NCBI GenBank assembly: GCA_964643765.1
Contig: CAZXTM010000002.1
Span: 209,237 to 273,236 of the forward strand
Direction of reading: 5' to 3'
From: an uncultured Bifidobacteriaceae bacterium
Lineage (GTDB): Bacteria; Acidobacteriota; Vicinamibacteria; Vicinamibacterales; UBA2999
Length of the DNA stretch: 64,000 nucleotides
Both the position numbers and the translations under genes were made by a program. This document shows, piece after piece, positions 10,538 to 48,817 of this stretch; the stretch's first letter is position 1, and every line of letters begins with the position of its first letter. The notes under the pieces are model-generated. The model was given only the letters and a program-made list of their open reading frames with translations, had not been told where the DNA came from and did not search any database.

Positions 10538-11374
10538 TCAGTGGTCAGCCGCGGGCCGCACCGCCCGAAGGCCCTGCACGCCGTGCCTGGCTATGAGGTC
10601 GGCCAGCGCACCGGTCGCCACCATGTCGCGGACAAACTGGTCAACGGCCGCAGCGGCTCCCGCAGGGCGGCCCTTCGGCACGGCGAGTCCGTGATTCACG
10701 GTTGTGAATCCGCCATCGAGCACGCGCACGTCGGGCGAGCGATCGTAGGCCTCGTGCAGGGTGGGGGCTAGCCCGGCCACAGCGTCGACCTCGCCCTTCC
10801 GCAGCAGATCCATCGAGGCCTCGCTGGTCGCCGGGCGCAGCAGGGTCGCCTGCTGCAGGGTGCGTGTCAGGAACAGCTCATAGCCCGTGCGCGGGGCCGC
10901 CGCCACGCGGCGCCCGGGACGGTCGACGTCGGCCACCGCGCCAATCACCGAGCCTCGCGCGACGACGTAGGTGGCCTCAATCTCGGTCATCGGCGATGAA
11001 AAGGTCACGACATCGGCGCGGGCCGGTTCGATGGCTAGGATAGCCACGTCCCACGTGCCGCTGCCGGCGCTGGCCGCCACATCACCAGGCGTGGCGTGCA
11101 TGACATGCGTGACCGCCACGCCGAGGCGCTGCCCAAGGGCTGCCACGAGGTCGATGCCGACGCCTCGCGGCGCGCCGGTGGCCGGGTCGCGTGTGGTGAA
11201 GAGTGCGTTGCCGAAATTGACGCCCACGCGCAGCGTGCCGGTGGGCGCGATGAGGGCACGGGCGGCAGCGACGGGATCTGCGGTCCCCTGCGTGGCGCGG
11301 GTGGCGCCTGTCGCGCTCATCACGAGCCACCCCGCAAGAACGCACGCGACGGTCGGCCAACGTGATGCGCGCAT
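10538..11374 (-). CDS. Periplasmic solute-binding protein (family 3, amino-acid ABC type), orphan
   Basis: Signal peptide MRASRWPTVACVLAGWLVMSATGA, then an SBP_bac_3-like body. The track ORF extends to 11545 across the tRNA gene, so it was trimmed to ATG 11374. There is no adjacent permease or ATPase. Confidence 0.7.
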   Translation of the reverse strand: MRASRWPTVACVLAGWLVMSATGATRATQGTADPVAAARALIAPTGTLRVGVNFGNALFTTRDPATGAPRGVGIDLVAALGQRLGVAVTHVMHATPGDVAASAGSGTWDVAILAIEPARADVVTFSSPMTEIEATYVVARGSVIGAVADVDRPGRRVAAAPRTGYELFLTRTLQQATLLRPATSEASMDLLRKGEVDAVAGLAPTLHEAYDRSPDVRVLDGGFTTVNHGLAVPKGRPAGAAAAVDQFVRDMVATGALADLIARHGVQGLRAVRPAADH

Positions 11375-11412
11375 GTGAACCTGAGCCTGCGTGTGAGCCG
11401 CCCCATGGATGC

Positions 11413-11502
<90 letters not shown>

Positions 11503-11569
11503 GCGTGCCCCTGATTATCGCACCATCGCGCTCGGCGGCGTGCACCCCCGCGGCGCGGGACCGTCCGGC

Positions 11570-12862
11570 CTAGGCCCGCGGCGTGCCGATGACCGTGCGT
11601 CCGCCCATGTAGGGGCGCAGCGCCTCGGGCACCACCACCGTGCCGTCGGCCTGCTGATAGTTCTCGAGCACGGCGATGAGCGTGCGGCCCACGGCCAGTC
11701 CCGATCCGTTCAGCGTGTGCACATACTCGGCCTTGCCCGTGCCGTCGGGACGGAAGCGGATGTTTGCCCGGCGCGCCTGGAACGCCTCGCAGTTCGAGCA
11801 CGACGAAATCTCGCGGTAGGTCTGCTGGCTGGGCAGCCACACTTCGATGTCGTACGTCTTCGAGGCCGAAAAGCCCATATCCCCCGTGCACAGCGCCATC
11901 GTCCGGTAGGGCAGCTGCAGCAGCTGCAGCACGCGTTCGGCGTTGGCGGTGAGCGACTCGAGTTCGTCGTACGAGGTGTCGGGCGTGGCGAACTTTACCA
12001 GCTCGACCTTGTCGAACTGGTGCTGACGAATCAGGCCGCGCACATCAGAGCCATACGAGCCGGCCTCGCTGCGGAAACACGGCGTGTAGGCGGTGTACTT
12101 CAGCGGCAGCTGGCGGCCGTCCAGAATCTCACCACGGTAGAGGTTCGTCACCGGCACCTCGGCCGTGGGAATCAGATACAGATCCCACTCGCCCGCAATC
12201 TTGAAGAGGTCAGGCCCGAACTTCGGCAGCTGGCCCGTGCCGTACAGCGTGCTGCCCGACACGAGGAACGGCGGCTCGACCTCGGTGTAGCCGTGGTGAG
12301 TCGAGTGCAGCTCGAGCATGAAGTTGATGAGCGCCCGCTCGAGCTTCGCCCCGTCGCCCATCAGGAACGCAAACCGCGAACCCGACACACGGGTCGCCCG
12401 CTCGAAGTCGATGATGCCGAGCTCGGGGCCGCTGTCCCAGTGCGCCTTCGGCGTAAAGTCGAACACGCGGCGCTCGCCCCAGGCCCGCACCTCGACGTTG
12501 TCGGCGGCACTGCGGCCGACCGGCACCGACGCGTGGGGCAGGTTCGGCAGGATGTCGAGGATGGCCTGCCGCTCCTGCTCGATCGTCTCGAGCTCGGCCT
12601 CCAGGCCCTTGATCGTCTGGCCGCGCTGCTTGTTGGCCTCGAAGATGTGCGACACATCCTCGCCGGCCTTCTTGGCCCGCGCGACGGCCTCGCCCGAGGC
12701 GTTCTGTTCGCGCTTCAGGCCTTCCACCTGCGGAATCATCTGGCGCCGTTTCTGGTCGAGCGCCGCCAGGGTGTCGAGTTCACGGCTGGCATCCATGCCG
12801 CGCGCCGCAAGGCCGGCACGCACACGATCGAGGTGGTCGCGGACGAATGTCGGATCAAGCAT
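11570..12862 (-). CDS. serS: Seryl-tRNA synthetase
   Basis: An N-terminal coiled-coil ([14 protein letters not shown]...) is followed by class II motifs (FRSEAGS..., [18 protein letters not shown]). Confidence 0.95.
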
Positions 12863-16678: not shown

Positions 16679-18088
16679 ATGTCGACACCCGCTCCCCTCC
16701 ACATTGTGGTCCTCGCCGCCGGCAAGGGCACCCGGATGAAGTCCGCCCGCCCCAAGGTGCTCCACGAAGCGGCCGGGCTCTCACTGCTCCGGCACGTCCT
16801 GCGCACCGCCGACGCCCTCTCCCCCGCGTCCACAACCGTCATCGTCGGCCACGAACATGCGCAGGTGACGGCCCATCTGGCCGACCTGCCCCACGTCACC
16901 ACCGTCATCCAGGAACCCCAGCTGGGCACCGGGCACGCCCTGCTCCAGGGAGAATCCGTGCTGACCGGGCGCCTCGGCACCCTCGTCCTGCTCTCGGGAG
17001 ACGTCCCGCTGCTGACCCCAGCCACGCTCAGCGCCCTGGTCGCCACCCATGACGCCGCCGGCGCCGCCGCCACGGTCATGACCGCCATGATTGAGCGGCC
17101 CACCGGCTACGGCCGGATCCTACGGGCCGAAGGCGGAGACATCACCCGCATCGTCGAGGAACGCGATGCCTCGCCCGCCGAGCGCGAGATCAAGGAAGTG
17201 AACGCCGGCATCTACGCCTTCGACCTAGCCCCGCTGTTCGAGGCCCTGCGCAGCATCGGATCCGCCAACGCCCAGAACGAATACTACCTGCCAGACCTCA
17301 TCGCCATCTACCGGCAGCAGCGCAGGACCGTGGCCACCTGGACCATTCCCAATGCCGCCGAAGTGCGGGGCGTGAACAGCCGTTCGGAACTGGCCGAGGT
17401 GGCGCGCCTCCTCTACCGGCGCAATGCCGACGACCTGATGGCTGCCGGTGTGACCCTCATCAACCCGGTCGCTACGTCCATCGACGTCGGGGTCACCGTG
17501 GGTGCGGACAGCGTGCTCTATCCCGGCGTCATGCTGCAGGGGCGCACCGTCATTGGCCGCGACTGCACCATCCTCCCGGGGTCACGGTTGCTCAATGCCA
17601 CCCTCGGCGACGGCGTGACCGTGCTGGATCACTGCCTCATCACAGACACGCACGTCGGCGACGGTGCCCAAGTCGGTCCCTTCGCGCACCTGCGCCCCGG
17701 AAGCCGCCTGGGCCGGAAGGCCAAGGTGGGCAACTTCGTCGAGCTCAAGAAGGCCTCGCTGGGCGACGGTGCCAAGGTCAACCATCTCTCCTACGTGGGC
17801 GATGCCACGATCGGTGACAAGGCCAATATCGGCGCGGGCACCATCACCTGCAACTATGACGGCGTGCACAAGCACCAGACCGTCGTGGGCGCCGGGGCGT
17901 TTGTGGGCAGCAACTCGACGCTGGTCGCCCCGGTCACCATCGGCGACAATGCCTACGTGGCGGCCGGGTCGACCGTGACAGCGCCCGTCCCAGACGATGC
18001 CCTGGCTGTTGGCCGCGCGCGCCAGCAGAACAAAGATGGCTGGGCAGCCAGACGCCGCGCCAGGCAGCAGGCGTCCTCACGCGACTGA
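16679..18088 (+). CDS. glmU: Bifunctional N-acetylglucosamine-1-phosphate uridyltransferase / glucosamine-1-phosphate acetyltransferase
   Basis: HIVVLAAGKGTRMKS plus C-terminal hexapeptide repeats. ATG 16679 lies 2 nt after the rsmI stop. Confidence 0.95.
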   Translation: MSTPAPLHIVVLAAGKGTRMKSARPKVLHEAAGLSLLRHVLRTADALSPASTTVIVGHEHAQVTAHLADLPHVTTVIQEPQLGTGHALLQGESVLTGRLGTLVLLSGDVPLLTPATLSALVATHDAAGAAATVMTAMIERPTGYGRILRAEGGDITRIVEERDASPAEREIKEVNAGIYAFDLAPLFEALRSIGSANAQNEYYLPDLIAIYRQQRRTVATWTIPNAAEVRGVNSRSELAEVARLLYRRNADDLMAAGVTLINPVATSIDVGVTVGADSVLYPGVMLQGRTVIGRDCTILPGSRLLNATLGDGVTVLDHCLITDTHVGDGAQVGPFAHLRPGSRLGRKAKVGNFVELKKASLGDGAKVNHLSYVGDATIGDKANIGAGTITCNYDGVHKHQTVVGAGAFVGSNSTLVAPVTIGDNAYVAAGSTVTAPVPDDALAVGRARQQNKDGWAARRRARQQASSRD

Positions 18089-23012: not shown

Positions 23013-25565
23013 TCAGGCCTCAGGCGGCGCCTCGTCTCCTGGCGAGCCGCCGTTGGCATCAGGCTCGGCCGTCGAGGCCAGGCCGTCGCCTACCGGAGTC
23101 TCAGCCGGCTCGGCCAGTACGAGCGCGACCGAGCTGACCTTGTCGTCGGCTTCCAGATCCATGAGGCGAACGCCCTGCGTCGCGCGTCCCACGACGCGAA
23201 TCGACTGCACGGGCGTCCTCAGGATCTTGCCCTTCACCGTGATGGCCAGCAGGTCGGTGTCGGCATGCACCTGCGCGATGTTGACCACCTCGCCGTTCTT
23301 GTCAGTCACCTCGACGTTCTTGATGCCGAGGCCCCCGCGACCCGTCTTGCGATACTCGTCAAGCTCGGTCTGCTTGGCATAGCCGCGTTCGGTCACGGTC
23401 AGCAGCGTGCCTGTGGGCTTGGCCACCTGCATGGCCACGACCTCGTCGCCGTCCCGAAGCTGGATGCCCCGCACGCCATACGCCGTGCGACCCATGGCGC
23501 GCACATCTTCTTCGTGGAAACGGATGGCCTTGCCCTGCCGCGTCCCGATGAACACATCGCTGGCCCCGTCGGAGAGCTGCGCCGCGATGAGGCGGTCCTC
23601 GGCCTCGATGCCCATCGCAATGATGCCGCCCGCCCTCGGGTTGCTGTAGGCCTCGAGCTCGGTCTTCTTGATAGTGCCGAGCCTCGTCCCCATCACGACA
23701 TACTTCGCATCATCGAACGTGCGGATCGTGATGACATCGGCGAGTTTTTCATCCGGGGCCATCTGCACGAGGTTGGCGATCGACTTGCCCCGGCCGTCCG
23801 GGCCCACATCGGGAATCTCGTAGACCTTCAGCCAGTACAGACGTCCCCGGTCCGTGAAGATCAGCAGGTACGAGTGTGTACTGGCCACGAAGAGGTGCCG
23901 CACGATGTCCTCGTCGCGCGTGCGCATGCCGATGCGCCCCTTGCCGCCCCGGCTCTGCGCCCGGTACGTGGTCGTGGGGGTGCGCTTGATGTATCCGGCA
24001 GCCGTCACCGTGACGGCCACGTCCTCGTCCTTGATGAGATCTTCGATGCGGAAGTCGCCTTCGTCCGCGACGATCTCGGTGCGGCGGGCATCCGTGTATT
24101 TCGCCTGCACGGCGCGCAGCTCGTCGACGACAATGCGCATGAGCAGCGGCTGATTCGCCAGGATGGTGCGCAGGCGCTCGATGGTGCGCATGAGCTCCGC
24201 CAGCTCGTCCATGATCTTCTGGCGCTCGAGGCCGGTGAGGCGCTGCAGCTGCATGTCGAGGATGGCCTGCGACTGGATGTCGCTGAGGCCAAACTGCGTC
24301 ATGAGGCCCACTTTCGCCTCGGCCGGGTTCCGCGAACCACGAATCAGGGCGATGACCGCGTCGAGGTGATCGAGCGCGATGCGCAGCCCCTCGAGAATAT
24401 GGGCGCGGGCCTCGGCCTTGCGCAGCTCGAACTCCGTGCGTCGGCGCACGACGTCGCGTCGGAACTCGACGAACTGCTCGAGCATCTCGAGCAGCGTCAG
24501 TACACGCGGACGGCCGCCCACGATCGCCAGCAGGATGATGCCGAAGGTCTGCTGCAGCTGCGTCTGCTTGTACAGGTTGTTCAGCACCACGTCGGGCACT
24601 GCGGCCTGCTTCAGCTCGATGACGATGCGCATGCCGTCGCGGTCTGATTCGTCGCGCAGGTCAGAGATGCCTTCGAGCGCCTTGTCGCGCACCAGATCGG
24701 CGATGCGTTCGAGCAGGTTCTTCTTGTTGACCTGATAAGGAATCTCGGTGACGACGATCTGCGTGCGGTCGCCCTTGCGGGTGGTCTCGACCTCGGCCTT
24801 GGCGCGCACCTGGATGCTGCCTCGCCCGGTCAGGTAGGCCTCGCGGATGCCGCGACGTCCGACGATGAGCCCGCCAGTCGGAAAGTCAGGGCCCGGAATT
24901 CGGGTGAGCAACTCCTGCGTCAGTTCGTCACGAGCGGGCGTGGGCTCTTCGTGGCCGCCCATGTAGGCCTGTTCGATGAGCCACACGGCACCGTCGATGA
25001 CTTCCCCCATGTGGTGCGGAGGAATGTTGGTCGCCATGCCGACGGCGATGCCCGTCGATCCGTTGACCAGCAGGTTCGGATAGGCGGCGGGAAAGACCGT
25101 GGGTTCGTCGGTGGTCTCGTCGAAGTTGGGGACGAAGTCGACCGTGTCCTTGTCGAGGTCCTCCATGAGAACCTCGGCCAGCGATTCGAGGCGGGCCTCG
25201 GTGTAACGATAGGCGGCGGGTGGGTCGCCGTCGACCGACCCGAAGTTGCCCTGGCCGTCGACCAGGGTCTGCCGCATGTTGAAGTCCTGCGCGAGGCGCA
25301 CCAGCGTGTCGTAGGCCGGCGCATCACCGTGCGGGTGATAGTTGCCGATGACTTCGCCGACGATCTTGGCGCACTTGCGATAGGCGCGGTTGCTCGTCAG
25401 GCCCATCTGGCGCATCGCGTACAGCACGCGCCGATGAGCGGGCTTGAGGCCATCCCGCACATCAGGCAGGGCTCGACCAATGATTACGCTCATCGCGTAA
25501 TCGAGGTACGAGCGCTTCATCTCGTCTTCGATGGTTACCGGCAGTCGTGAGTCGGTCGTGGACAT
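23013..25565 (-). CDS. gyrA: DNA gyrase subunit A
   Basis: [21 protein letters not shown], the [10 protein letters not shown] active-site Tyr region and C-terminal beta-pinwheel repeats. Confidence 0.97.
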
Positions 25566-25569
25566 GAGC

Positions 25570-28131
<2,562 letters not shown>

Positions 28132-28140
28132 TCAGGAGGG

Positions 28141-29250
28141 TCACACCCGCATGGGCATGATCACGTAGGTATAGTCGTAGCCCTCGACCCCGACGGGCTT
28201 GAGCACCGCCTGGCTGACTTCGTCCTTGAGGTCGAGGGAAATCACATCGGCCTCGACCGCATTGAGGAAGTCGAGCACGTACTGGGCATTGAAGCAGGTG
28301 GTCAGCGACGGCCCGCTGTAGTCGACGGCCAGAGGTTCGTGGGCCTCGCCGAACTCGGGGCTGCTCGAGGTGACCTCGACCGTGCCGGCCTGCACCACGA
28401 ACTTGAGGGCGCGGGAACGTTCGTTCGAGAGCAGCGAGACGCGCCTCACGGCCGAGATGAGCCGATCCCGCTCGAACTCGAGGTGCTTGTCGTTGCCGCG
28501 GGGAATGACCTTCTCGTAGGCCGGGAACTGACCGTCGATCATCCGTGACATCAGCAGTCGGGGGCCCACCTGGAAGAAGAGGTGGTTCTCGCCGCGCTGG
28601 AAGGTGACGTCGCCGTCACCGTCCGCCAGCAGGCGTCCGAGTTCGGCCAGTGCCTTCCTGGGCAGAATCGGCTTCTCATCGTCTGTGGCCTGCCCTTCCC
28701 GGGTGGCGGTGACCAGCGCGAGGCGATGGCCATCGGTGGCCACCAGCGTCATCTGGTTAGGCTTGACCACAAAGAGGGCGCCGTTGAGGTAGTAGCGCGT
28801 GTCCTCGCCGGTGATGGCGAACTGGGTCTTCGCAATCATCTGCGACAGTGCCGAGCGGCTGAGCACGATGCCAGGGCTGTCGGGAGGTTCCGTGACGGTC
28901 GGAAAGTCTTCCCGCGGCAGGGTCGGCATCTTCGAGCTGAACTGCCCGCCGGTGACCTTGACGTTCTGCTGGTTGCGATCGGCCTCGAGCCGGACATCGC
29001 CGTCGGGCAGGGCACGCACAATCTCGTAGAGCTTCTTGGCGGGCAGCGTCACGGCTCCGTGGCGCGTGACGGCGGCCTGCGTGCGGCTGCGTAGGGTGAC
29101 TTCGAGGTCGGTCGCCAACAGCACCATCTCGTCGCCCGTGGCCTCGATGAGCACGTTCGCGAGGATGGGAATTGTGTTCTTGCGTTCGACAATCTGCTGA
29201 AAGAACTGCAGCTCCCGAACGAGATCGGCTTTGCGAACGACCAGTTCCAT
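28141..29250 (-). CDS. dnaN: DNA polymerase III beta sliding clamp
   Basis: Three-domain clamp ending ...YVIMPMRV. It lies immediately downstream of dnaA. Confidence 0.95.
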   Translation of the reverse strand: MELVVRKADLVRELQFFQQIVERKNTIPILANVLIEATGDEMVLLATDLEVTLRSRTQAAVTRHGAVTLPAKKLYEIVRALPDGDVRLEADRNQQNVKVTGGQFSSKMPTLPREDFPTVTEPPDSPGIVLSRSALSQMIAKTQFAITGEDTRYYLNGALFVVKPNQMTLVATDGHRLALVTATREGQATDDEKPILPRKALAELGRLLADGDGDVTFQRGENHLFFQVGPRLLMSRMIDGQFPAYEKVIPRGNDKHLEFERDRLISAVRRVSLLSNERSRALKFVVQAGTVEVTSSSPEFGEAHEPLAVDYSGPSLTTCFNAQYVLDFLNAVEADVISLDLKDEVSQAVLKPVGVEGYDYTYVIMPMRV

Positions 29251-29264
29251 GCGGCGTGTACCCT

Positions 29265-29474
29265 CAGGAAAAAAGAGACAGAAGGAGAGACACAGAATTA
29301 TACAGGAAGTAGGTCTTGCGGAAGAAATTTTCTGTGTCAGTAAGTGCTTTTAAATCAGGCACTTAAATTGTGGATATTTCTGTGGAGCCGCTGCGGGTTT
29401 CCGGTGCGTCGGTGAGGGGGGATTCGCCCCATCCACAGGCGTCCACAGTTGGTTGTGGAAAACGCTGTGGATTA
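29265..29474. other. Candidate oriC: an AT-rich unwinding region plus a cluster of six DnaA-box-like 9-mers in the dnaA-dnaN spacer
   Basis: The boxes, scored against TTATCCACA or its complement, are: TGTGGATAT 29369-77 (8/9); TGTGGAGCC 29381-89 (6/9); CCATCCACA 29429-37 (7/9); GCGTCCACA 29439-47 (6/9); TGTGGAAAA 29454-62 (8/9); TGTGGATTA 29466-74 (8/9). The purine- and AT-rich stretch 29265-29368 contains the 9-bp inverted repeat GACACAGAA (29289-97) / TTCTGTGTC (29330-38). Confidence 0.6.
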
Positions 29475-30848
29475 CTTGATGGTGCTCAGGAAATTACTGA
29501 CGAGTCCGTCAAAGTCAGGATTGGTTCTGCGTAGTTCTTCCACCTTCTTGATGGAGTGAATGACGGTCGAGTGGTGCTTGCCGCCGAACGACCGGCCAAT
29601 CTCGGGCAGCGAGGCGGTCGTCAGCAGCTTTGCCAGGTACATCGCGATTTGCCGGGGCATGGCGACAGACTTGGCATTGTTTCGCGACTTGAGGTCGACG
29701 AGGCGGAGTTGGTAGTAGTCGGCCACAAAGCGCTGGATCTGCTCGATGGTGACCGCTCGGTCGTCAAGGTCGAGGGTGTTCCTGAGCACATCCTGCGCTA
29801 GGTCGATGGTGAGAGGCAGGCCTTTCAGCGAGGCGTAAGCCACAAGCCGGGTCAGCGAGCCTTCCAGTTCGCGGATGTTCGACTTGATGCGGTTGGCTAT
29901 GAACATGGCCACGCTGTCGGGCAGCGGCACGGCCTCGGTCTCGGCCTTGCGCTTTAGAATCGCAATCTTCGTTTCGATGTCGGGGGGCTGGATGTCAGCG
30001 ATGAGGCCCCATTCGAAGCGCGACCGGAGGCGTTCCTCGAGGGCGGGAATCTCGTGCGGGGGCCGGTCGCTGCTGATGACAATCTGCTTCTGGGCGTCGT
30101 GGAGGGCATTGAAGGTGTGGAAGAACTCCGTCTGGGTGCCTTCCTTGCCCGAGACAAACTGGATGTCGTCGACAAGCAGGATGTCGACACTGCGATACTG
30201 CGCCCGGAAGTCGAGGATGCGGTCGAACCGCAGGGCGTTGATCATCTCATTCATGAACCGCTCTGAGGAGATATACGAGAGGGTCAGGCCGGGGTTGTGG
30301 CGGACGACGTACTGCCCGATGGCGTGCATCAGGTGGGTTTTGCCCAGGCCGACGCCCCCGTAGATGAAGAGCGGGTTGTAGGAGCGCGAGGGTGCCTCGG
30401 CCACGGCGCGGGCCGCCGCGTGCGCGAACTGGTTCGACGGGCCGACAATGAAGGTGTCGAACGTGTAGCGGGGATTGAGGCCGCCTGGCAGCGGGCCGGG
30501 GGCTGGCCGGTCAGCCTGGGGGTCGACTGCCGGCATCGTCGTGTCCTCGACTGTGGCGGGGGGGGCGTCAAGCGAGAAGACCTGGGGTTCGCGCGCAGGC
30601 TCAGGGACGCCGACCTCGAAGATCAGCGAGGTGCCAGCCCGGCCGGCTTCTTCGAGCGCCTCGTGGAGGACACTCGAGTAGTGGCGGGGCAGCCACTCCG
30701 TGAACAGCGGTGCAGGGACGAGCACGGTCAACTGGTGCCCGCCGTCGTGCTTGAGCGAGGTGGGCTTGAACCAGGTGGAATAGCTGTGTGGACCCACCTT
30801 TCCCTCGACGAGGTGCAGAATCCGGTCCCAAATCGTGTCGGTGGCCAT
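29472..30848 (-). CDS. dnaA: Chromosomal replication initiator protein DnaA
   Basis: [11 protein letters not shown]..., AAA+ [15 protein letters not shown], and C-terminal DnaA-box-binding [13 protein letters not shown]. The start is trimmed to ATG 30848. The track extension to 30923 translates the DnaA boxes. Confidence 0.95.
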
Positions 30849-30871
30849 GGTGAGAGGGGGCAAATGGGCGT

Positions 30872-30903
30872 TTTTCCACGAGCTTTTCCACAGATGTGGA
30901 AAA
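30872..30903. promoter_or_regulatory. DnaA-box trio in the divergent dnaA/rpmH promoter region, including the inverted pair TTTTCCACA-GA-TGTGGAAAA
   Basis: TTTTCCACG at 30872-80 (7/9), TTTTCCACA at 30884-92 (8/9) and TGTGGAAAA at 30895-903 (8/9). They lie 24-55 nt upstream of the dnaA start. Confidence 0.6.
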
Positions 30904-30996
30904 CTTCGTGAGCGCTTCGCCACTCTAGCATGCGCTTCGGGGCTTTACAGTGGGCGGGATCACCGCATAAAATCAGTGGTTCGTTCTGAGGAGTTT

Positions 30997-31161
30997 ATGG
31001 CACGAGCTAAGAAGGGCAAGCGTACATACCAGCCGAATAACCGCCACCGCGCGAAGACCCACGGGTTTCTCGTCCGGATGGCCACGAAGGATGGCCGTGA
31101 GGTCATCAAGCGTCGGCGGGCGAAGGGCCGCAAGCGTCTGACCGTTTCAGACGAAGCCTAG
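30997..31161 (+). CDS. rpmH: 50S ribosomal protein L34
   Basis: [50 protein letters not shown], with GAGGAG 4 nt upstream. Confidence 0.95.
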
Positions 31162-31165
31162 GCCC

Positions 31166-31549
31166 ATGGCCAGGTTCCGCGCGCATGAACACATCAGGGC
31201 GCGCGATGAGTTTGAAGCGATGTATAACGGCGGCCGACGCATTTCGGGCCGCCTTATGACGCTATTTATTGGGGCAAACAACAAAAAGAATGCAAGACTG
31301 GGCATCGCTGCCACCAGGAAGATCGGTTCAGCGGTCGTCAGAAACCGGGCCAAGCGGCTGGCCCGGGAAGTCTTCCGTCACCATAAGCCTGAGGCGGGTC
31401 TCGACGTCGTCGTCGTCGCCCGCCGGGAACTGGCCCATGCCCCCTACACTGCGGTCGAAGCCGAATTCCGTGCCCTGCTCGAACGACGCTCCCCATCAGG
31501 ACCGTCACGGGGTGTCACTGCCGGCCGAGGCCGCGCTGTGGCTGATTAG
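31166..31549 (+). CDS. rnpA: Ribonuclease P protein component
   Basis: Sits directly after rpmH. It is a basic protein with ...RLGIAATRKIGSAVVRNRAKRLAREVFR. Confidence 0.9.
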   Translation: MARFRAHEHIRARDEFEAMYNGGRRISGRLMTLFIGANNKKNARLGIAATRKIGSAVVRNRAKRLAREVFRHHKPEAGLDVVVVARRELAHAPYTAVEAEFRALLERRSPSGPSRGVTAGRGRAVAD

Positions 31550-31745
31550 GGGCTATAAGGTGGTCTTTTCACCCTGGTTCAGCGGAGCGTGCCGGTACAC
31601 CCCCGGGTGCGCCGATTACACCGCCGAAGCGATTCGTCGGTTCGGCCTGGCCCAGGGCGGCTGGATCGGCCTTCGGCGCATAGCCCGATGCCACCCCTGG
31701 GGGGGATTCGGCATCGATCCTGTTCCCGATCATCACGGTCAGTAA
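31512..31745 (+). CDS. yidD: Membrane protein insertion efficiency factor YidD
   Basis: LIRGYKVVFSPWFSGACRYTPGCADYTAEAIRRFG...CHPWGGFGIDPVP is the YidD signature. A GTG 31512 start is assumed and overlaps the rnpA end by 38 nt. Confidence 0.75.
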   Translation: MSLPAEAALWLIRGYKVVFSPWFSGACRYTPGCADYTAEAIRRFGLAQGGWIGLRRIARCHPWGGFGIDPVPDHHGQ

Positions 31746-31753
31746 GTGCTCTC

Positions 31754-33406
31754 ATGGAACGTCGCGTCCTGCTCGCCATCTCACTGTCGTTTCTGGTGCT
31801 GTTCCTGTACCAGACCTATGTGATTCCACCCCCTCCCGCAGAGACGACCGCCCAGTCGGCGGCCCTGCCGGCGTCGTCGCCGGTGGCTCCGGCATCGTCC
31901 CCGGCGCCCGCCGTCGCGGCGGCCCAGACCGTATCGGTTCTGACGGGCGAGAGCGACGAACGCGAGATTGTGGTCGAGACATCGACCGTGCGGGCCGTCT
32001 TTACCAATCGCGGGGCGCGGCTGTCGCACTGGATCCTCAAGAATTACAAGAACGATGCTGGACGCCAGCTTGACCTGGTGCCCGACGCCCAGAAGCTGGG
32101 TCCGGCGCTGCTGCCGTTTTCACTGAGGCTGGCCGACGCGGCGGCGACCAGCCGTGCCAATGGCAGCCTCTATCGGGCCTCGGCCCCCAGCGTCGATGCG
32201 ACGACGGCGCCAGGGTCGGTGACGTTCGAGTACGGCGATGCGTCGGGTCTGATGGTGTCGAAAACCTTCACGTTCGACCCCTCCGGCTATGTCGTGACGC
32301 TAGCCGTCTCGGTGCGGCAGGGCGACGCGGTCCTCGTGCCGGCCATCGAATGGGGCCCCGGTCTCGGGGATGACATCGCCCGCGCCCGACCAGCCAGCTT
32401 CCTGTCACCCAGCTACTCGACTCCGGCGCAGGCCATCTACCACCAGGACGGCAGCGTCGAGCGGCTGTCTCAGGCCACACCCGGCAGTGTGTCGGGCGCC
32501 TATCGGTATGTGGGTATCGACGACCACTACTTCACAGCGCTGGCGCTCAACGATTTCTCGGCCCCCGCGTCCCTGACGTTTGCCCACACGCCGTTCGTGG
32601 TGGGGGCGGCTGCCGACGGTACCCCCGAGGGTCGCTATGTGGCCTTCTCGGTGCAGCCGGCGACCGCCGGCGCGCCGCAGCGGTTCTACGTGGGCCCGAA
32701 AGAGTTCGACATCCTGAGGGCCGTTGACACGGAACTGGTGCGCGTCATCAACTTCGGGTTCTTCGCTCCCCTGTCCGTCCCCCTGCTGCGTGCGCTCAAG
32801 TGGGTGCAGACCTACATCGGCAACTGGGGCTGGTCGATCATTGTCCTGACCATTCTCATCAACCTGGCCATGGCTCCTTTCCGCCAGAAGTCGGTCAATT
32901 CGATGAAGAAGATGCAGGAGATTCAGCCGCAGCTGAAGGCGATTCAGGATCGGTATTCGAAGTACTCGATTACGGATCCGGCGCGGCAGAAGATGAACGA
33001 AGAGGTGATGTCCCTGTATAAGGCGAAGGGCGTGAACCCGACGAGCGGCTGCCTGCCGATGCTGCTGACGTTCCCCTTCCTGTTTGCCTTCTACGGCATG
33101 CTGTCGCAGGCCATCGAGATTCGCGGTGCCGAGTTCTTCGGATGGATTGTGGACCTGTCGCGTCCGGACCCCCTGCTGATCACCCCCCTGCTGATGGGCG
33201 CCACGATGTTCTGGCAGCAGCGCATCACGCCGACGTCCGCCGACCCTGTGCAGCAGAAGGTGATGATGATCATGCCGGTGATGTTCACCTTCATGTTCCT
33301 GTCATACCCGAGCGGCCTGGTGATCTACTGGACGCTCAGCAACCTGTGGGCCATTGGCCAGCAGTATCTTTCCACCACGCTGGCCCCGACGCCGGCCCGC
33401 AAGTAA
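31754..33406 (+). CDS. yidC: Membrane protein insertase YidC
   Basis: MERRVLLAISLSFLVLFLYQ, then a periplasmic domain, then the conserved core ...GWSIIVLTILINLAMAPFRQKS...GCLPMLLTFPFLFAFY. ATG 31754. Confidence 0.9.
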   Translation: MERRVLLAISLSFLVLFLYQTYVIPPPPAETTAQSAALPASSPVAPASSPAPAVAAAQTVSVLTGESDEREIVVETSTVRAVFTNRGARLSHWILKNYKNDAGRQLDLVPDAQKLGPALLPFSLRLADAAATSRANGSLYRASAPSVDATTAPGSVTFEYGDASGLMVSKTFTFDPSGYVVTLAVSVRQGDAVLVPAIEWGPGLGDDIARARPASFLSPSYSTPAQAIYHQDGSVERLSQATPGSVSGAYRYVGIDDHYFTALALNDFSAPASLTFAHTPFVVGAAADGTPEGRYVAFSVQPATAGAPQRFYVGPKEFDILRAVDTELVRVINFGFFAPLSVPLLRALKWVQTYIGNWGWSIIVLTILINLAMAPFRQKSVNSMKKMQEIQPQLKAIQDRYSKYSITDPARQKMNEEVMSLYKAKGVNPTSGCLPMLLTFPFLFAFYGMLSQAIEIRGAEFFGWIVDLSRPDPLLITPLLMGATMFWQQRITPTSADPVQQKVMMIMPVMFTFMFLSYPSGLVIYWTLSNLWAIGQQYLSTTLAPTPARK

Positions 33407-38631: not shown

Positions 38632-39530
38632 TGGACAAAAAGAAACCCGCGCTCGGCAAGGGCCTGAGCGCCCTGATTCCCGACGCCACCTCGACGCCCG
38701 AGGCCCCGCGCACCACCCTCGAAGTCGACATCGATCAGCTCGAGGCGAACCGCTACCAGCCCCGCACCCAATACGACAGCGATCGCCTGACCGACCTGGC
38801 GAACTCGATTGCCTCGTCTGGCATCATCCAGCCCATTGTCGTCAGGCGGCTCGCCGACCAGGGCGGCGCCGTCCGTCCCCGCTACCAGATCATCGCCGGT
38901 GAGCGACGCTGGCGGGCGGCCCAGCAGGCCGGCCTCACCCGTGTGCCAGTCACCGTCAAGGACGTGGACGACACGCAGCACCAGGCGCAGCTCGAGATGG
39001 CGCTGATCGAGAACATCCAGCGCGAGAATCTGAACCCGGTTGAAGAGGCCCTCGCCTACCAGCGCCTTGTCGAGCAATTTCAACTCACCCAGGAAGAAAT
39101 TGGCATCCGCGTCGGGAAGGACCGCGCCACCGTGGCCAACATGCTCCGGTTGCTTCGGCTGCCCGAAGAGGTGCGCGCCGCGGTGGCCGGCGGCGCCCTC
39201 TCGATGGGCCATGCCCGTGCCCTGCTGAGCCTGACGACCGAGGCCGACCAGCGCCGCGTGGCCCGTGACGTGATCGACCGCGCGCTGTCTGTCAGAGACA
39301 CGGAAGCCCTGACCCGTCGGAGTGCGGCGGCACCGCCCGCCACCACAGCCTCGGCGCCAGCGGTGCCGGCCAAGGACGTGCACACCCGCGAGGCCGAGCA
39401 GCAGCTGCGGTTTGCGCTGGGCACGGCCGTCACGATTCACCGCCGCCGGAAAGGCGGCAGCATCGAGGTGAGTTTCACCAGCGAACAGGAACTGCAGCGG
39501 CTGTACGAGTATCTGATGGCGCGTCGCTAG
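38628..39530 (+). CDS. parB: Chromosome partitioning protein ParB/Spo0J
   Basis: GIIQPIVVRR...IIAGERRWRAAQQAGL (ParB box), then the HTH region. The start overlaps the parA stop. Confidence 0.93.
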   Translation: MMDKKKPALGKGLSALIPDATSTPEAPRTTLEVDIDQLEANRYQPRTQYDSDRLTDLANSIASSGIIQPIVVRRLADQGGAVRPRYQIIAGERRWRAAQQAGLTRVPVTVKDVDDTQHQAQLEMALIENIQRENLNPVEEALAYQRLVEQFQLTQEEIGIRVGKDRATVANMLRLLRLPEEVRAAVAGGALSMGHARALLSLTTEADQRRVARDVIDRALSVRDTEALTRRSAAAPPATTASAPAVPAKDVHTREAEQQLRFALGTAVTIHRRRKGGSIEVSFTSEQELQRLYEYLMARR

Positions 39531-39557
39531 ACGTGGCGATGCGGGGAGCGAGGACCG

Positions 39558-40610
39558 ATGTCACTGTTCGGAAAGAAGCGGCTGACCGAGATGGTCAGCT
39601 GCGCCGGTTGAGCCAGTAAACTCGCCGCCGGCGAGCTCGCTCACGTGCTGAGCGACATTCCTCCGTCGAATGACCCCCGTGTCCTGATTGACTTCAGGAC
39701 GGCGGACGATGCCGGTGTGTACGAGTGGGAGGGCGGCCCTGCCCTCGTCCAGACCGTCGACTTCTTCACTCCGATCGTCGATGACCCGTATGTCTTCGGC
39801 CAGATTGCCGCGGCCAATTCCCTGAGCGACATCTACGCCATGGGGGCCCAGCCCCGGACGGCGCTGGCAATCGCCGCGTTTCCCAAGGACGGCCTCGAAC
39901 CGGGCACCATCGAAGCCGTGTTCCGCGGGGGCTATGACAAGCTGCGCGAGGCCCAGACGGCCCTGCTCGGGGGGCATACGGTTCAGGATCAGGAAATCAA
40001 GTTCGGCTACGCAGTGACTGGCGCGGCCGACCCCGGCCGCCTGCACTCGAACGCGGGCGCGCGCCCCGGGGATGTCCTGTTGCTGACCAAGCGCATCGGC
40101 ACGGGCATCATCGGCACGGCCATCAAGGCCGATCGGGCCCCGGCGGCGATCGTGGGCCAGGCGATTGCGTCGATGACCGCCCTCAACAAGACGGCAGCCG
40201 ACGTCATGGCGACGGTCACCGGCGTGCATGCGTGCACGGACATCACCGGCTTCGGCCTGCTGGGGCACGCCTGTGAGGTAGCGCAGGCCAGTGGCGTCAC
40301 CCTGCTGGTCGATGCCGGCGCAGTTCCCCTGTTTGACGGCGTCGAGGCGATGGTGGCCCAGAACCGCTCCGGGGGCCTGACGGCCAATCGCAAGCACTTC
40401 GGCCGGAGGATCAGCCTGCCCGACGACCTGACCCGGGAACGGGCCGACCTGCTGTTTGACCCGCAGACCTCCGGTGGTCTCCTGATCGCGGTCGCCGAAC
40501 CCGGCGCCGACGACCTGCGGCAGCGCCTGCGCGACCGTGGCGTCGAGGTCGCCACCGTTGGCCGGGCGGTCGAGCGGGCCGAGGACGACGCCCTGATTCA
40601 TGTGCGATAG
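39558..40610 (+). CDS. selD: Selenide, water dikinase (selenophosphate synthetase) with a predicted selenocysteine encoded by in-frame TGA 39609-39611
   Basis: The track ORF starts at 39645. The same frame upstream reads ATG 39558 MSLFGKKRLTEMVSCAG-TGA-ASKLAAGELAH. This is colinear with E. coli SelD ...RLTQYSHGAG-C17-GCK20-ISPKVL. The rest (TVDFFTPIVDDPYVFGQIAAANSLSDIYAMG..., TDITGFGLLGH, DPQTSGGLL) is unmistakably SelD. Confidence 0.85.
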
Positions 40611-40657
40611 TCTCCGTCCAGACCCGGTGCGGACCGTGCTATCCTTAGTCGTTTGTC

Positions 40658-41080
40658 ATGATTCCTGACATCTCGACACTTTGGGTCGTGTTCTTCCTGC
40701 TGCTGTGCACGTGGCTGCTGAACACTCTCATCTTTCAGCCCATCCTGAAGGTCATCGACGCCCGCGCGGCGGCCGTGAAGGGCGCCCGCGACCTGGCTGA
40801 CACCGCAGCGGCCCGTGCCGCGGACGCCACCGCACGCTACGACGCCGAAGTCTCGGCGGCGCGCGCCGAGGTGTATGCCCAGATTGACGCCACGCGGAAG
40901 GCGGCGCTCGATCGCCGGGCCCAGATGCTGGCCGAGACACGGACGCTGGTGGAGCAGGAGACGAAGGAGGCCACGGCCACCGTCGCCCGCGAATCCGCGG
41001 CCGCGCGTGAAGCGCTCGAGCGGGATGCGCACGACATGAGCCGGGCGATTGTCATGCGCGTGCTCGGGCGCGCGTCCTGA
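40658..41080 (+). CDS. F0F1 ATP synthase subunit b' (b-type stalk protein)
   Basis: A single N-terminal TM segment (LWVVFFLLLCTWLLNTLIFQPILKVIDAR) is followed by an Ala/Arg/Glu-rich helix. It is the first gene of the atp cluster. Confidence 0.7.
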   Translation: MIPDISTLWVVFFLLLCTWLLNTLIFQPILKVIDARAAAVKGARDLADTAAARAADATARYDAEVSAARAEVYAQIDATRKAALDRRAQMLAETRTLVEQETKEATATVARESAAAREALERDAHDMSRAIVMRVLGRAS

Positions 41081-41113
41081 CCGGCACGACGTGAAGGTGG
41101 AGAACGCGACATC

Positions 41114-41716
41114 GTGAAGACACTGCGTCGAACGGCTTGTGAATTAATGCACAGGGTGCCCACCCCGGCACCGCTGGCGCTGGTGCTCGCGCTCGCCCTG
41201 CCGGCCCTCGCACAGGCGGCCGAAGACGCTGGGCACCACGAGGCCAGCCTGGCCGACCTGCTCTGGCCGACGGCCAATTTCGCCATCATGGTTGCGGTGC
41301 TGGTCTATCTGCTCCGCGTGCCGCTCACGACCTATCTGACCGACCGCAGCACCAGCATCCGCCGCGACCTGGTCGACGCAGCCGCCATGAAGGCGACGGC
41401 GACCGAGCAGCTGTCCGAGATTGACCGCCGGATGCGCGCCCTGCCTGACGAGCTGGCCAGCCTCCGCGCACGCGCCGAAGCCGAGCTTCAGGCCGAGGAG
41501 CAGCGCATTGCGCAGCAGGCCATTGCCGACCGCGACCGCCTGGTCGATCAGGCGCGCAAGCAGATGGATGTCCAGGTGCGCATGGCCAAGCGCGAGCTGA
41601 CCGAGCACGCCGCCAACCTGGCGGTCGACCTGGCCACCCGTGCCGTTGAACAGGACACGACAGCTGATGACCATGCCCGGCTCGTCAAGCGCTATGTGTC
41701 GCAGGTGAGCCGCTAG
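41114..41716 (+). CDS. atpF: F0F1 ATP synthase subunit b
   Basis: TM segment LLWPTANFAIMVAVLVYLL, then a long charged helix. It sits before atpH. The start is uncertain (GTG 41114 or ATG 41147). Confidence 0.75.
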   Translation: MKTLRRTACELMHRVPTPAPLALVLALALPALAQAAEDAGHHEASLADLLWPTANFAIMVAVLVYLLRVPLTTYLTDRSTSIRRDLVDAAAMKATATEQLSEIDRRMRALPDELASLRARAEAELQAEEQRIAQQAIADRDRLVDQARKQMDVQVRMAKRELTEHAANLAVDLATRAVEQDTTADDHARLVKRYVSQVSR

Positions 41717-47458: not shown

Positions 47459-48817
47459 ATGACGCCGGCCATCGATGTCGTCAACGTCTCGAAGGTGTAC
47501 CGGCGCTTTGCGCGCCAGCGCCAGTTCGCCACCCTGAAGAGCGCACTGCTCAAGGGCAGCCTCATCCGCGACCTGCAGCCGGACGAGACGTTCTCGGCCC
47601 TGCGGGGCGTCTCGTTTCAAATACCGAAGGGCTGCACGTACGGCGTAATCGGCCGCAACGGCTCGGGCAAGTCGACGCTGCTCAAGTGCGTGGCCGGCAT
47701 CTCGCGGCCCAGTGCCGGCAGCATCACGGTCGATGGCCGGGTTTCGGCACTGATCGAACTTGGCGCCGGATTCCACCCGGAGATTTCGGGCCGGGAGAAT
47801 GTCTTCATCAACGGCATCATGCTCGGCCTCTCGAAGAAGGAAGTTGAGCGCCGATTCGATGAGATCGTCGAGTTTGCCGAGATGCAGGACTTCATCGATG
47901 CACCGGTGAAGACCTACTCGTCGGGCATGTACATGCGCCTCGGCTTTGCCGTCGCGATTCACGTCGACCCCGAGGTGCTGCTCGTCGACGAAGTGCTGGC
48001 TGTTGGCGACCAGGGCTTCACCATCAAGTGCCTCGACAAATTTGCGGAGTTCCGCCGGAAGAACAAGACCATCCTGCTTGTCACCCACTCGCTCGACCTT
48101 GTCGAGAAGTTCTGTGACCAGGCCCTGTGGCTCGACAAGGGCCAGACCAAGGCCGAGGGTGAGTCGAAGCGCGTGGTGGCGTCGTACATCATCGACGTCG
48201 AGAAGAGCGAGGAGCAGGAGCTGGCCAAGGCCGAGTCGGCGCGCCTGGCGGCTACGGCCTCGGTGGCCGCGGCGGCCGCTGCCCAGCCGGACAGCCCCAC
48301 CGATCCGGTCAGCACCGGTGACGCGCCGACGGACATGTTCAAGGCCACTGAGGGCCGCTGGGGCACGCGTGAGATCGAGATCCTGAAGGTCAGCCTGCTG
48401 GGACCGGACGGCCAACCCGGGCACGTGTTCCACCACGGCGACTCGATTCGCGTGCGGATGCAGGTGCGCGCCCACCAGCCGACCAGGGACTTCGTCTTCG
48501 GCCTTGGCATCTTCAACGCCGATGGCGTGTGCTGCTACGGCACCAACACCTATCTCGAAGAGTACGACCCCGATGAATTCTCGGGCGACGGCCACGTCAC
48601 TTTCGTCGTCGACAGCCTGCAGTTGGTCGAGGGCACGTACCGCTTCGACCTGGCCGCACACAAGCTTGACGGCTACCCCTACGACTATCACCGGCTGCTC
48701 TACACCTTCCGCGTGAAGTCGAGGACCAAGGATGTGGGCATTTACCGGCCTGCCCACCGCTGGGAGTTCTCCCCGGGCATTCGCTTCAAGGCCCTCGACG
48801 CGCCCCGGACTTTCTGA
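47459..48817 (+). CDS. ABC polysaccharide exporter ATP-binding protein (Wzt/TagH-like) with an extra C-terminal domain
   Basis: Contains GRNGSGKSTLLK, YSSGMYMRLGFA and LLVDEVLAVGD. The roughly 200-aa C-terminal extension resembles Wzt carbohydrate-binding domains. ATG 47459 has GGAGGA upstream. Confidence 0.88.
   Translation: MTPAIDVVNVSKVYRRFARQRQFATLKSALLKGSLIRDLQPDETFSALRGVSFQIPKGCTYGVIGRNGSGKSTLLKCVAGISRPSAGSITVDGRVSALIELGAGFHPEISGRENVFINGIMLGLSKKEVERRFDEIVEFAEMQDFIDAPVKTYSSGMYMRLGFAVAIHVDPEVLLVDEVLAVGDQGFTIKCLDKFAEFRRKNKTILLVTHSLDLVEKFCDQALWLDKGQTKAEGESKRVVASYIIDVEKSEEQELAKAESARLAATASVAAAAAAQPDSPTDPVSTGDAPTDMFKATEGRWGTREIEILKVSLLGPDGQPGHVFHHGDSIRVRMQVRAHQPTRDFVFGLGIFNADGVCCYGTNTYLEEYDPDEFSGDGHVTFVVDSLQLVEGTYRFDLAAHKLDGYPYDYHRLLYTFRVKSRTKDVGIYRPAHRWEFSPGIRFKALDAPRTF

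Follow-up and report, generated by a model that had tools for sequence, protein, structure and literature searches.

We analyzed a stretch of 64,000 nucleotides (nt) from contig CAZXTM010000002.1 of GenBank assembly GCA_964643765.1, hereafter referred to as the window, and focused on the selD gene on its plus strand, in which a single in-frame TGA occupies the codon of the catalytic residue. The reading frame that begins at ATG 39558-39560 is open to TAG 40608-40610 and comprises 351 codons, TGA 39609-39611 being the sole internal stop; the preceding gene, parB, ends at 39530, 27 nt upstream of the ATG. A mechanical list of open reading frames (ORFs) sets the start of selD at GTG 39645 and thereby cuts off the first 29 codons. 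An earlier note, made from the letters of the sequence, had located the ATG, the TGA, the ORF start, a GAGGA motif upstream of the ATG and two stem-loops downstream of the TGA, and all of these positions were confirmed in the sequence (Table 1). From the evidence presented below we regard it as highly probable that the product of 39558-40610 is a full-length selenophosphate synthetase (SelD; selenide, water dikinase) with selenocysteine (Sec, U) at residue 18 of its catalytic N-terminal loop, UGA 39609-39611 being the Sec codon.

The selD product and its shortened annotation

With U read as cysteine, the 350-residue product scores 359.1 bits against the selD profile TIGR00476 (cut-off 125), covering profile positions 1-309 of 311, and 311.3 bits against NF002098 (cut-off 299), so that the assignment to the SelD family made in the earlier note holds for the full-length product. 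Its Pfam matches are the domains AIRS and AIRS_C. The product can be aligned end to end with the SelD proteins of E. coli (PDB 3u0o) and Aquifex (PDB 2yye), and the Asp/Asn motifs for ATP and metal (DDAGVY, TVDFF, NSLSD, TDITGFG) are kept relative to both. Cys17 and Lys20 are essential in E. coli SelD; in the alignment U18 falls on Cys17 and K21 on Lys20 (...SCAG-U18-AS-K21... versus ...HGAG-C17-GC-K20), in agreement with the earlier proposal that the TGA replaces the catalytic cysteine while the lysine three residues later is retained. Such agreement goes far beyond what chance would produce. The truncated ORF of 321 residues lacks the Gly-rich catalytic loop altogether.

The earlier note had also claimed that ORF callers truncate this gene, and public records bear this out. 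The 321-residue call stands on all six contigs listed, among 20 contigs carrying selD. We further searched a public protein collection with full-length SelD and examined the best 120 matches: 87 of them are 312-326 residues long and start nearly always with V/MLSDIP, which corresponds to the GTG just 3' of the hairpins, and the other 33 are 341-353 residues long and read ...LTELVSCAG-C-ASKLAAGELA.... U is absent from all 120. Because 87 of the 120 best public proteins start at the post-hairpin GTG, it is confirmed that gene callers systematically truncate the Sec form of selD. TGA serves as an ordinary stop elsewhere in the window, where it ends 22 of the 45 predicted genes. The purine run directly upstream of ATG 39558 is a putative ribosome-binding site for selD.

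Table 1. Features of the selD locus. Positions refer to the window; A1 denotes an ungapped alignment of 54 distinct Sec-type selD genes; CDS, coding sequence; H1 and H2, first and second hairpin.
Feature	Position	Strand	Details
Shine-Dalgarno-like purine run	39543..39554	+	GGGGAG 39543-39548 (9 nt 5' of ATG) and GAGGA 39550-39554 (3 nt 5' of ATG); read from sequence
Full-length selD CDS	39558..40610	+	350 residues, U at residue 18, TAG 40608-40610; translation and profile matches
Cys15 codon TGC	39600..39602	+	three residues before Sec; C-x-x-U motif
In-frame TGA, Sec18 codon	39609..39611	+	homologous to E. coli SelD Cys17
Lys21 codon AAA	39618..39620	+	homologous to essential Lys20 of E. coli SelD; AA invariant, columns 13-14 of A1
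Hairpin H1	39621..39635	+	arms 39621-39626/39630-39635, 6 base pairs CUCGCC/GGCGAG, loop GCC, -8.2 kcal/mol, starts 9 nt after UGA
Hairpin H2	39637..39655	+	arms 39637-39643/39649-39655, 7 base pairs UCGCUCA/UGAGCGA, loop CGUGC, -8.8 kcal/mol, loop 32 nt after UGA
Truncated ORF, GTG start, 321 residues	39645..40610	+	gene-caller product; annotation artefact, not the real product

Conservation across the TGA and the downstream hairpins

Over the 171 nt that surround the TGA, six contigs (ERZ27275609, ERZ27275580, SRR8942242, SRR8942243, SRR8942244, SRR30451276) match the window exactly; they stem from six different assemblies or runs and were assembled independently; an assembly error at 39609-39611, which the earlier note had named as an outcome that would overturn its proposal, is thereby excluded. 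In a search restricted to one genome per species we obtained 80 selD loci; those nearest to the window belong to metagenome-assembled genomes (MAGs) labelled Vicinamibacterales or unclassified Acidobacteriota and share at most 86% identity. The TGA stands in the same column in all 30 closest loci and, more widely, in L001-L037 and others, among them relatives with the labels Dormibacterota, Chloroflexi, Bacillota, Planctomycetota and others; at twenty loci of greater distance the column holds TGC or TGT. A pattern composed of the TGA and the following 32 nt matches in at least 120 species genomes, nearly all of which are labelled Vicinamibacterales, Vicinamibacteria, gp6, Luteitalea sp. or Acidobacteriota.

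Translation of the segment upstream of the TGA is supported by the way in which it varies. Among 128 distinct sequences, the entropy of the codons at positions -1 to -11 relative to the TGA is low for the first two bases and high for the third (in bits, 0/0/1.25 for Thr -8, 0.5/0.07/1.04 for Leu -9 and 0.66/0.5/1.94 for Arg -10), and from codon -12 upstream all positions lie near 1.9 bits. The 11 codons from the TGA to the GTG are likewise conserved as protein in the same frame, and the consensus of the relatives reads K-R-L-T-[EDQ]-[MY]-[VAS]-[SA]-C-A-G-U-A-S-K-L-A-A-G-E-L-A. By this pattern the segment upstream of the TGA is translated and under purifying selection, and the reading frame runs on through the TGA. 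A lack of conservation of the upstream frame in relatives, another outcome that had been named as fatal, did not occur: close relatives keep the TGA together with the frame, and other syntenic orthologues carry cysteine in the same frame.

The Cys of the C-A-G-U motif is kept in 126 of the 128 distinct relatives and is also found in Cys-type orthologues (C-A-G-C). Judged from this sequence motif, Cys15 and Sec18 could form a selenenylsulfide or a CxxC-like redox pair in the catalytic loop. A 7-base-pair inverted repeat (GCTGACC...GGTCAGC, 39581-39599) lies within the N-terminal coding segment, ends 9 nt before the TGA and was scored as terminator-like on the minus strand. Relatives do not keep its arms (GTC TCC or GTC GCC stands in place of GTC AGC), and for this reason the repeat is probably due to chance. 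A promoter and terminator scan of 39200-40800 yielded nothing informative.

Downstream of the TGA, the two stem-loops that the earlier note had pointed out were both found; they are conserved, and H2 covaries. H1 and H2 jointly constitute the minimum-free-energy fold of the hairpin segment. On A1, 79% of the cells of the two-hairpin structure are paired, versus 25-49% when the partners are slid, and the covariation score amounts to 0.252 versus 0.154 in shuffles, a value reached by none of 500 shuffles. The covariation is most readily followed at the H2 pair 39641-39651 (pair 36-46 of A1), which across phyla occurs as UA in 22, CG in 18, AU in 3 and GC in 3 sequences. Among 129 distinct Vicinamibacterales-type sequences, gathered with a search pattern that did not extend into the 3' arm of H2, 69 have UA at this pair, 59 have CG and one has UG, with no mismatch. 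On a neighbor-joining tree of the downstream protein this corresponds to about 11 changes of state. The pair connects the wobble position of an Ala codon with a Ser/Gly exchange located three codons downstream, a linkage with no obvious protein-level explanation.

Of 58 Sec-type selD genes that represent many phyla, 57 have a hairpin at the position of H1; H1 is thus the more universal of the two, H2 being absent from several lineages. A canonical selenocysteine insertion sequence (SECIS) listed in BSepDB for the SelD of a member of the Synergistota likewise lies at the position of H1 (PMC13326102). The loop of H2 reads GGUGC or GGUCC in most relatives and CGUGC here. Published criteria for bacterial SECIS elements (bSECIS), those of bSECISearch, specify a loop of 3-9 nt, a stem of 4-16 base pairs, a G in the first two loop positions, a distance of 16-37 nt between UGA and loop and an energy of at most -7.5 kcal/mol (PMC13188914). 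H2, with a spacing of 32 nt, lies within all of these limits, and H1 falls short on spacing only. In 20 Cys-type homologues from other phyla the hairpins are not consistent. We regard H1 as probably the core SECIS and H2 as an accessory or alternative element. That H2, with its GGU-type loop, its occurrence in several phyla and its loss in Cys orthologues, is a functional part of a bipartite selD SECIS beyond single-hairpin models is a possibility to which we give limited credence, if more than to a non-canonical decoding of the UGA (see below).

We also considered a fold in which the UGA would pair at the foot of a long helix, the minimum-free-energy fold of 39609-39670, and rejected it: in 32 of the 54 sequences the partner of the A of the UGA has become C with no compensating change, and the column opposite this A covaries instead with the 3' arm of H2.

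Within the clade, six Cys-type orthologues (L442-L447) allow a direct comparison of the two forms. All of them directly follow parB, parA is visible in four, and atpH/atpA follows in three as in the window; because they share this parA-parB-selD-atp context, they are orthologues of the Sec form and supply the classical Sec/Cys pair. The Cys-type proteins of the clade (e.g., P0030, P0033 and P0099) show 61-67% identity to the product and share the peptide ...SCAG-x-ASKLAAGEL; they differ in having TGC for TGA and in hairpins that are partly or largely decayed. The six orthologues retain 4-6 of the 6 pairs of H1 and 3-6 of the 7 pairs of H2; L447 has kept 6/6 and 6/7 pairs, respectively, and L443 has kept 4/6 and 3/7. 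SECIS remnants after a Sec-to-Cys conversion have been described for SelD (PMC1794560), and the partly decayed hairpins look like such remnants, the whole set resembling, on the sequence level, a series of Sec-to-Cys conversions of different ages.

Proposed decoding of the UGA and rival explanations

The proposed mechanism would proceed as follows: Translation would start at ATG 39558, and at the UGA the downstream mRNA would fold into one or two hairpins (39621-39635 and 39637-39655) that may serve as a bacterial SECIS. These hairpins would recruit SelB-GTP together with Sec-tRNA(Sec), whereby Sec would be inserted and termination avoided. The resulting SelD would generate selenophosphate from selenide and ATP and would thus provide the selenium donor for the synthesis of the very Sec-tRNA on which its own translation depends. 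The conserved UGA and hairpins lead us to infer that the source organism possesses selA, selB and selC; selenium would be incorporated into its SelD.

Several observations weigh against this assignment. By tblastn with the E. coli proteins and by ARAGORN, respectively, neither selA/selB nor a tRNA-Sec was found in the 64-kb window, and selA, selB and tRNA-Sec were equally missing from the 20-kb flanks of 30 related selD loci and from 119 further selD loci of 8 kb. tRNA-Sec genes do occur in many other Acidobacteriota MAGs (two pattern scans with at least 120 matches each), but among the tRNA-Sec matches listed no assembly is common to the set with selD-TGA. With respect to the hairpins, H1 agrees with the bSECIS criteria except for its spacing of 15 nt, one below the range of 16-37, and its statistics in the Vicinamibacterales-type set are partly circular, as the search pattern fixed H1. 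Furthermore, the folding energy of 39609-39670 is unremarkable for its composition (z = -0.87), and the structural case consequently rests on conservation and covariation. Finally, an Rfam search of 39450-39800 returned no SECIS family even at E-values up to 10; this is expected given that bacterial SECIS elements are diverse and poorly modelled, and we do not count it against function.

Further searches for the machinery gave a similar picture. An Rfam search for tRNA-Sec had no match, and Pfam annotation of the whole window revealed no selU, selA, selB or other selenium gene. Across the window, the 80 selD loci and the 119 further loci, tblastn and ARAGORN gave matches only in two Bacillota-type loci (L041, L054), which have a selA-selB-selC-selD cluster, and in one Syntrophomonas locus (L037), where a tRNA-Sec lies near selD. 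A scan of the window for other genes with an in-frame TGA produced no second candidate: the same-frame pairs that meet at a TGA, glmU/glmS at 18086, atpF'/atpF at 41078 and wzt/cytidylyltransferase at 48815, are ordinary neighboring genes.

The absence of Sec machinery from the Vicinamibacterales selD loci covered here leaves room for a decoding of the UGA outside the canonical SelA/SelB route, for example by a tRNA-Sec-like tRNA of the selC*/SelB* type charged with cysteine, by an opal suppressor or by an allo-tRNA. There is precedent for such tRNAs: irregular allo-tRNAs, possible suppressors, have been reported in Acidobacteria, and the opal codon in selD of Desulfomonile has been used to test a selC*-type tRNA-Cys read by a SelB-like factor (PMC5389517). 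We nonetheless consider this route very unlikely. As the machinery is not expected beside selD, little follows from its being missing in about 1.6 Mb of DNA around selD, and canonical tRNA-Sec genes are common in Acidobacteriota. Moreover, it would be pointless to keep a UGA and a SECIS in more than 120 species merely to insert cysteine, for which TGC suffices, and where Cys orthologues did arise, their hairpins are decaying.

The two remaining explanations dispense with recoding. If the TGA were a true stop, the functional product would be the 321-residue protein from GTG 39645, possibly alongside a separate upstream peptide of 17 residues, and the GTG-start ORF does indeed exist and is called by public pipelines. 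Such a protein would, however, be devoid of the Gly-rich loop with its catalytic Cys/Sec and Lys; on either side of the TGA, 11 codons upstream of it and the 11 that lead up to the GTG are conserved in frame as protein; the segment matches the SelD profile from position 1, and the Cys orthologues are continuous there; and no sequence resembling a ribosome-binding site precedes GTG 39645. We hold a true stop to be still less credible than non-canonical decoding. The idea that a nonsense mutation has turned selD into a pseudogene, or that the TGA is an error of sequencing or assembly, has in its favor only the look of a single in-frame stop, as a fresh mutation or a wrong base call would leave it, and has next to no chance in our estimation: the sequence is identical in six independent assemblies, the same TGA recurs in at least 120 species, both sides of the TGA are under purifying selection, and compensatory changes maintain the downstream hairpin. 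Comparative data have already refuted this last explanation. Insertion of Sec by the canonical route remains the explanation that we favor for the UGA.

Surroundings, significance and comparison with known systems

The window is the chromosomal replication-origin region, with the origin neighborhood at 23013-33406. It opens with genes for an aminotransferase, amtB, glnB, gltB, gltD, a helix-turn-helix regulator and a solute-binding protein, which are followed by tRNA-Ser(UGA), serS, a nucleotidyltransferase, DUF885, glmU, glmS and uvrD/pcrA. Next are gyrA, gyrB, dnaN and dnaA on the minus strand (23013-30923), and from 31589 onward yidC, jag, mnmE, mnmG, rsmG, parA and parB on the plus strand, which lead to selD. 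Downstream of selD the atp operon, an ABC-2 exporter pair, mfd, a surA-like gene, a nusG-like gene, dus and regulators complete the order.

Several features of these surroundings deserve mention in their own right. The gap of 666 nt between dnaA and yidC (30924-31588) is the expected site of rpmH/rnpA and possibly of oriC. On the minus strand, tRNA-Ser(UGA) (11413-11502) is located directly downstream of serS (11570-12862), and the solute-binding ORF of 335 residues (10538-11545) overlaps this tRNA gene, its real start probably being further in. Following selD, 40658-41716 harbors two consecutive ATP-synt_B genes (subunits b/b') in the same frame, split by TGA 41078.

Two further observations concern the wider set of loci. 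Contigs with the TGA and hairpin sequence of Vicinamibacterales-type selD also appear in MAGs with other labels (L008, L022/L350, L355, L360, L366, L370, L378, L400), namely Betaproteobacteria, Burkholderiaceae, Caldimonas, Bifidobacteriaceae and Acidimicrobiia, which likely reflects mis-binning rather than transfer. In the Acidobacteriota loci with tRNA-Sec (L147, L154, L161 and others), this gene stands alone, often near tRNA-Ala(GGC), without selA/selB within 8 kb; five of these tRNAs share the 5' half GGARGCG...CYGGTG...CGGACTTCAAATCCG, which among the 120 tRNA-Sec loci listed is confined to Acidobacteria and in a wider scan is also found in WOR-3, Dehalococcoidia, Zixibacteria and others.

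In practical terms, public records show SelD 29 residues too short, both for the source organism and for considerably more than a hundred species of Vicinamibacterales. The truncated records are devoid of the catalytic loop, and their bearers should count as selenium users. A common acidobacterial order of soil and freshwater is thereby flagged as probably Sec-decoding, which is relevant to surveys of selenium use; our literature search on Vicinamibacterales and selenocysteine retrieved nothing relevant. A small addition comes from the second hairpin of the tandem: with compensatory changes as clean as these, it could help to refine models of bacterial SECIS elements. Selenoprotein biology as such is unchanged, because Sec-type SelD, its SECIS and its misannotation have all been documented.

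Among bacterial selenoproteins, none is more widespread than FdhA and SelD, and four selenoproteins were already listed for Acidobacteria in 2006 (PMC1794560). The second rank of SelD in this respect and its frequent misannotation are on record (PMC1794560, PMC13188914, PMC13326102, PMC4561486), and bacterial SECIS elements of Sec-type SelD genes have been described (PMC4561486). Known examples of the protein include that of Desulfomonile tiedjei, where codon 15 of selD is the opal codon (PMC5389517), and that of Acetomicrobium mobile, which is included in BSepDB (PMC13326102). The locus described here is an ordinary example of this well-known case, and its local peculiarities are minor. Like known bacterial Sec-type SelD, it belongs to the family with scores above the equivalog cut-offs, has its UGA at the corresponding place in the N-terminal G-x-G-U-x-x-K loop, is followed by a hairpin that starts 9-12 nt after the UGA and suffers from the same truncation. 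Unlike them, it has a Vicinamibacterales host, a Cys at the third residue ahead of Sec (C-A-G-U), where the GCGCK loop of E. coli would lead one to expect G-U-G-C, and a second, covarying hairpin, and its selD has parB and the atp operon as neighbors instead of selA/selB/selC.

E. coli SelD, the Cys17 form (PDB 3u0o), gives a 224-bit alignment over residues 8-350, in which Lys20 and the Asp/Asn motifs are kept; it differs in using Cys (TGC) without recoding or SECIS and in having a second Cys at +2, which is absent here. The SelD of Aquifex aeolicus (PDB 2yye/2zod), a further example of the Sec type, was reportedly crystallized as a Sec-to-Cys variant. On the RNA level, the stem-loop lies in the coding sequence directly after the UGA as in the SECIS of E. 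coli fdhF and in the consensus bacterial model. The fdhF SECIS has the loop sequence GGUC, which the H2 loops GGUGC and GGUCC of the relatives resemble. At variance with both the fdhF element and the consensus, however, two tandem hairpins, located 15 nt (H1) and 32 nt (H2) from the UGA, take the place of one long helix, and a pairing of the UGA itself into a long stem is without covariation support here.

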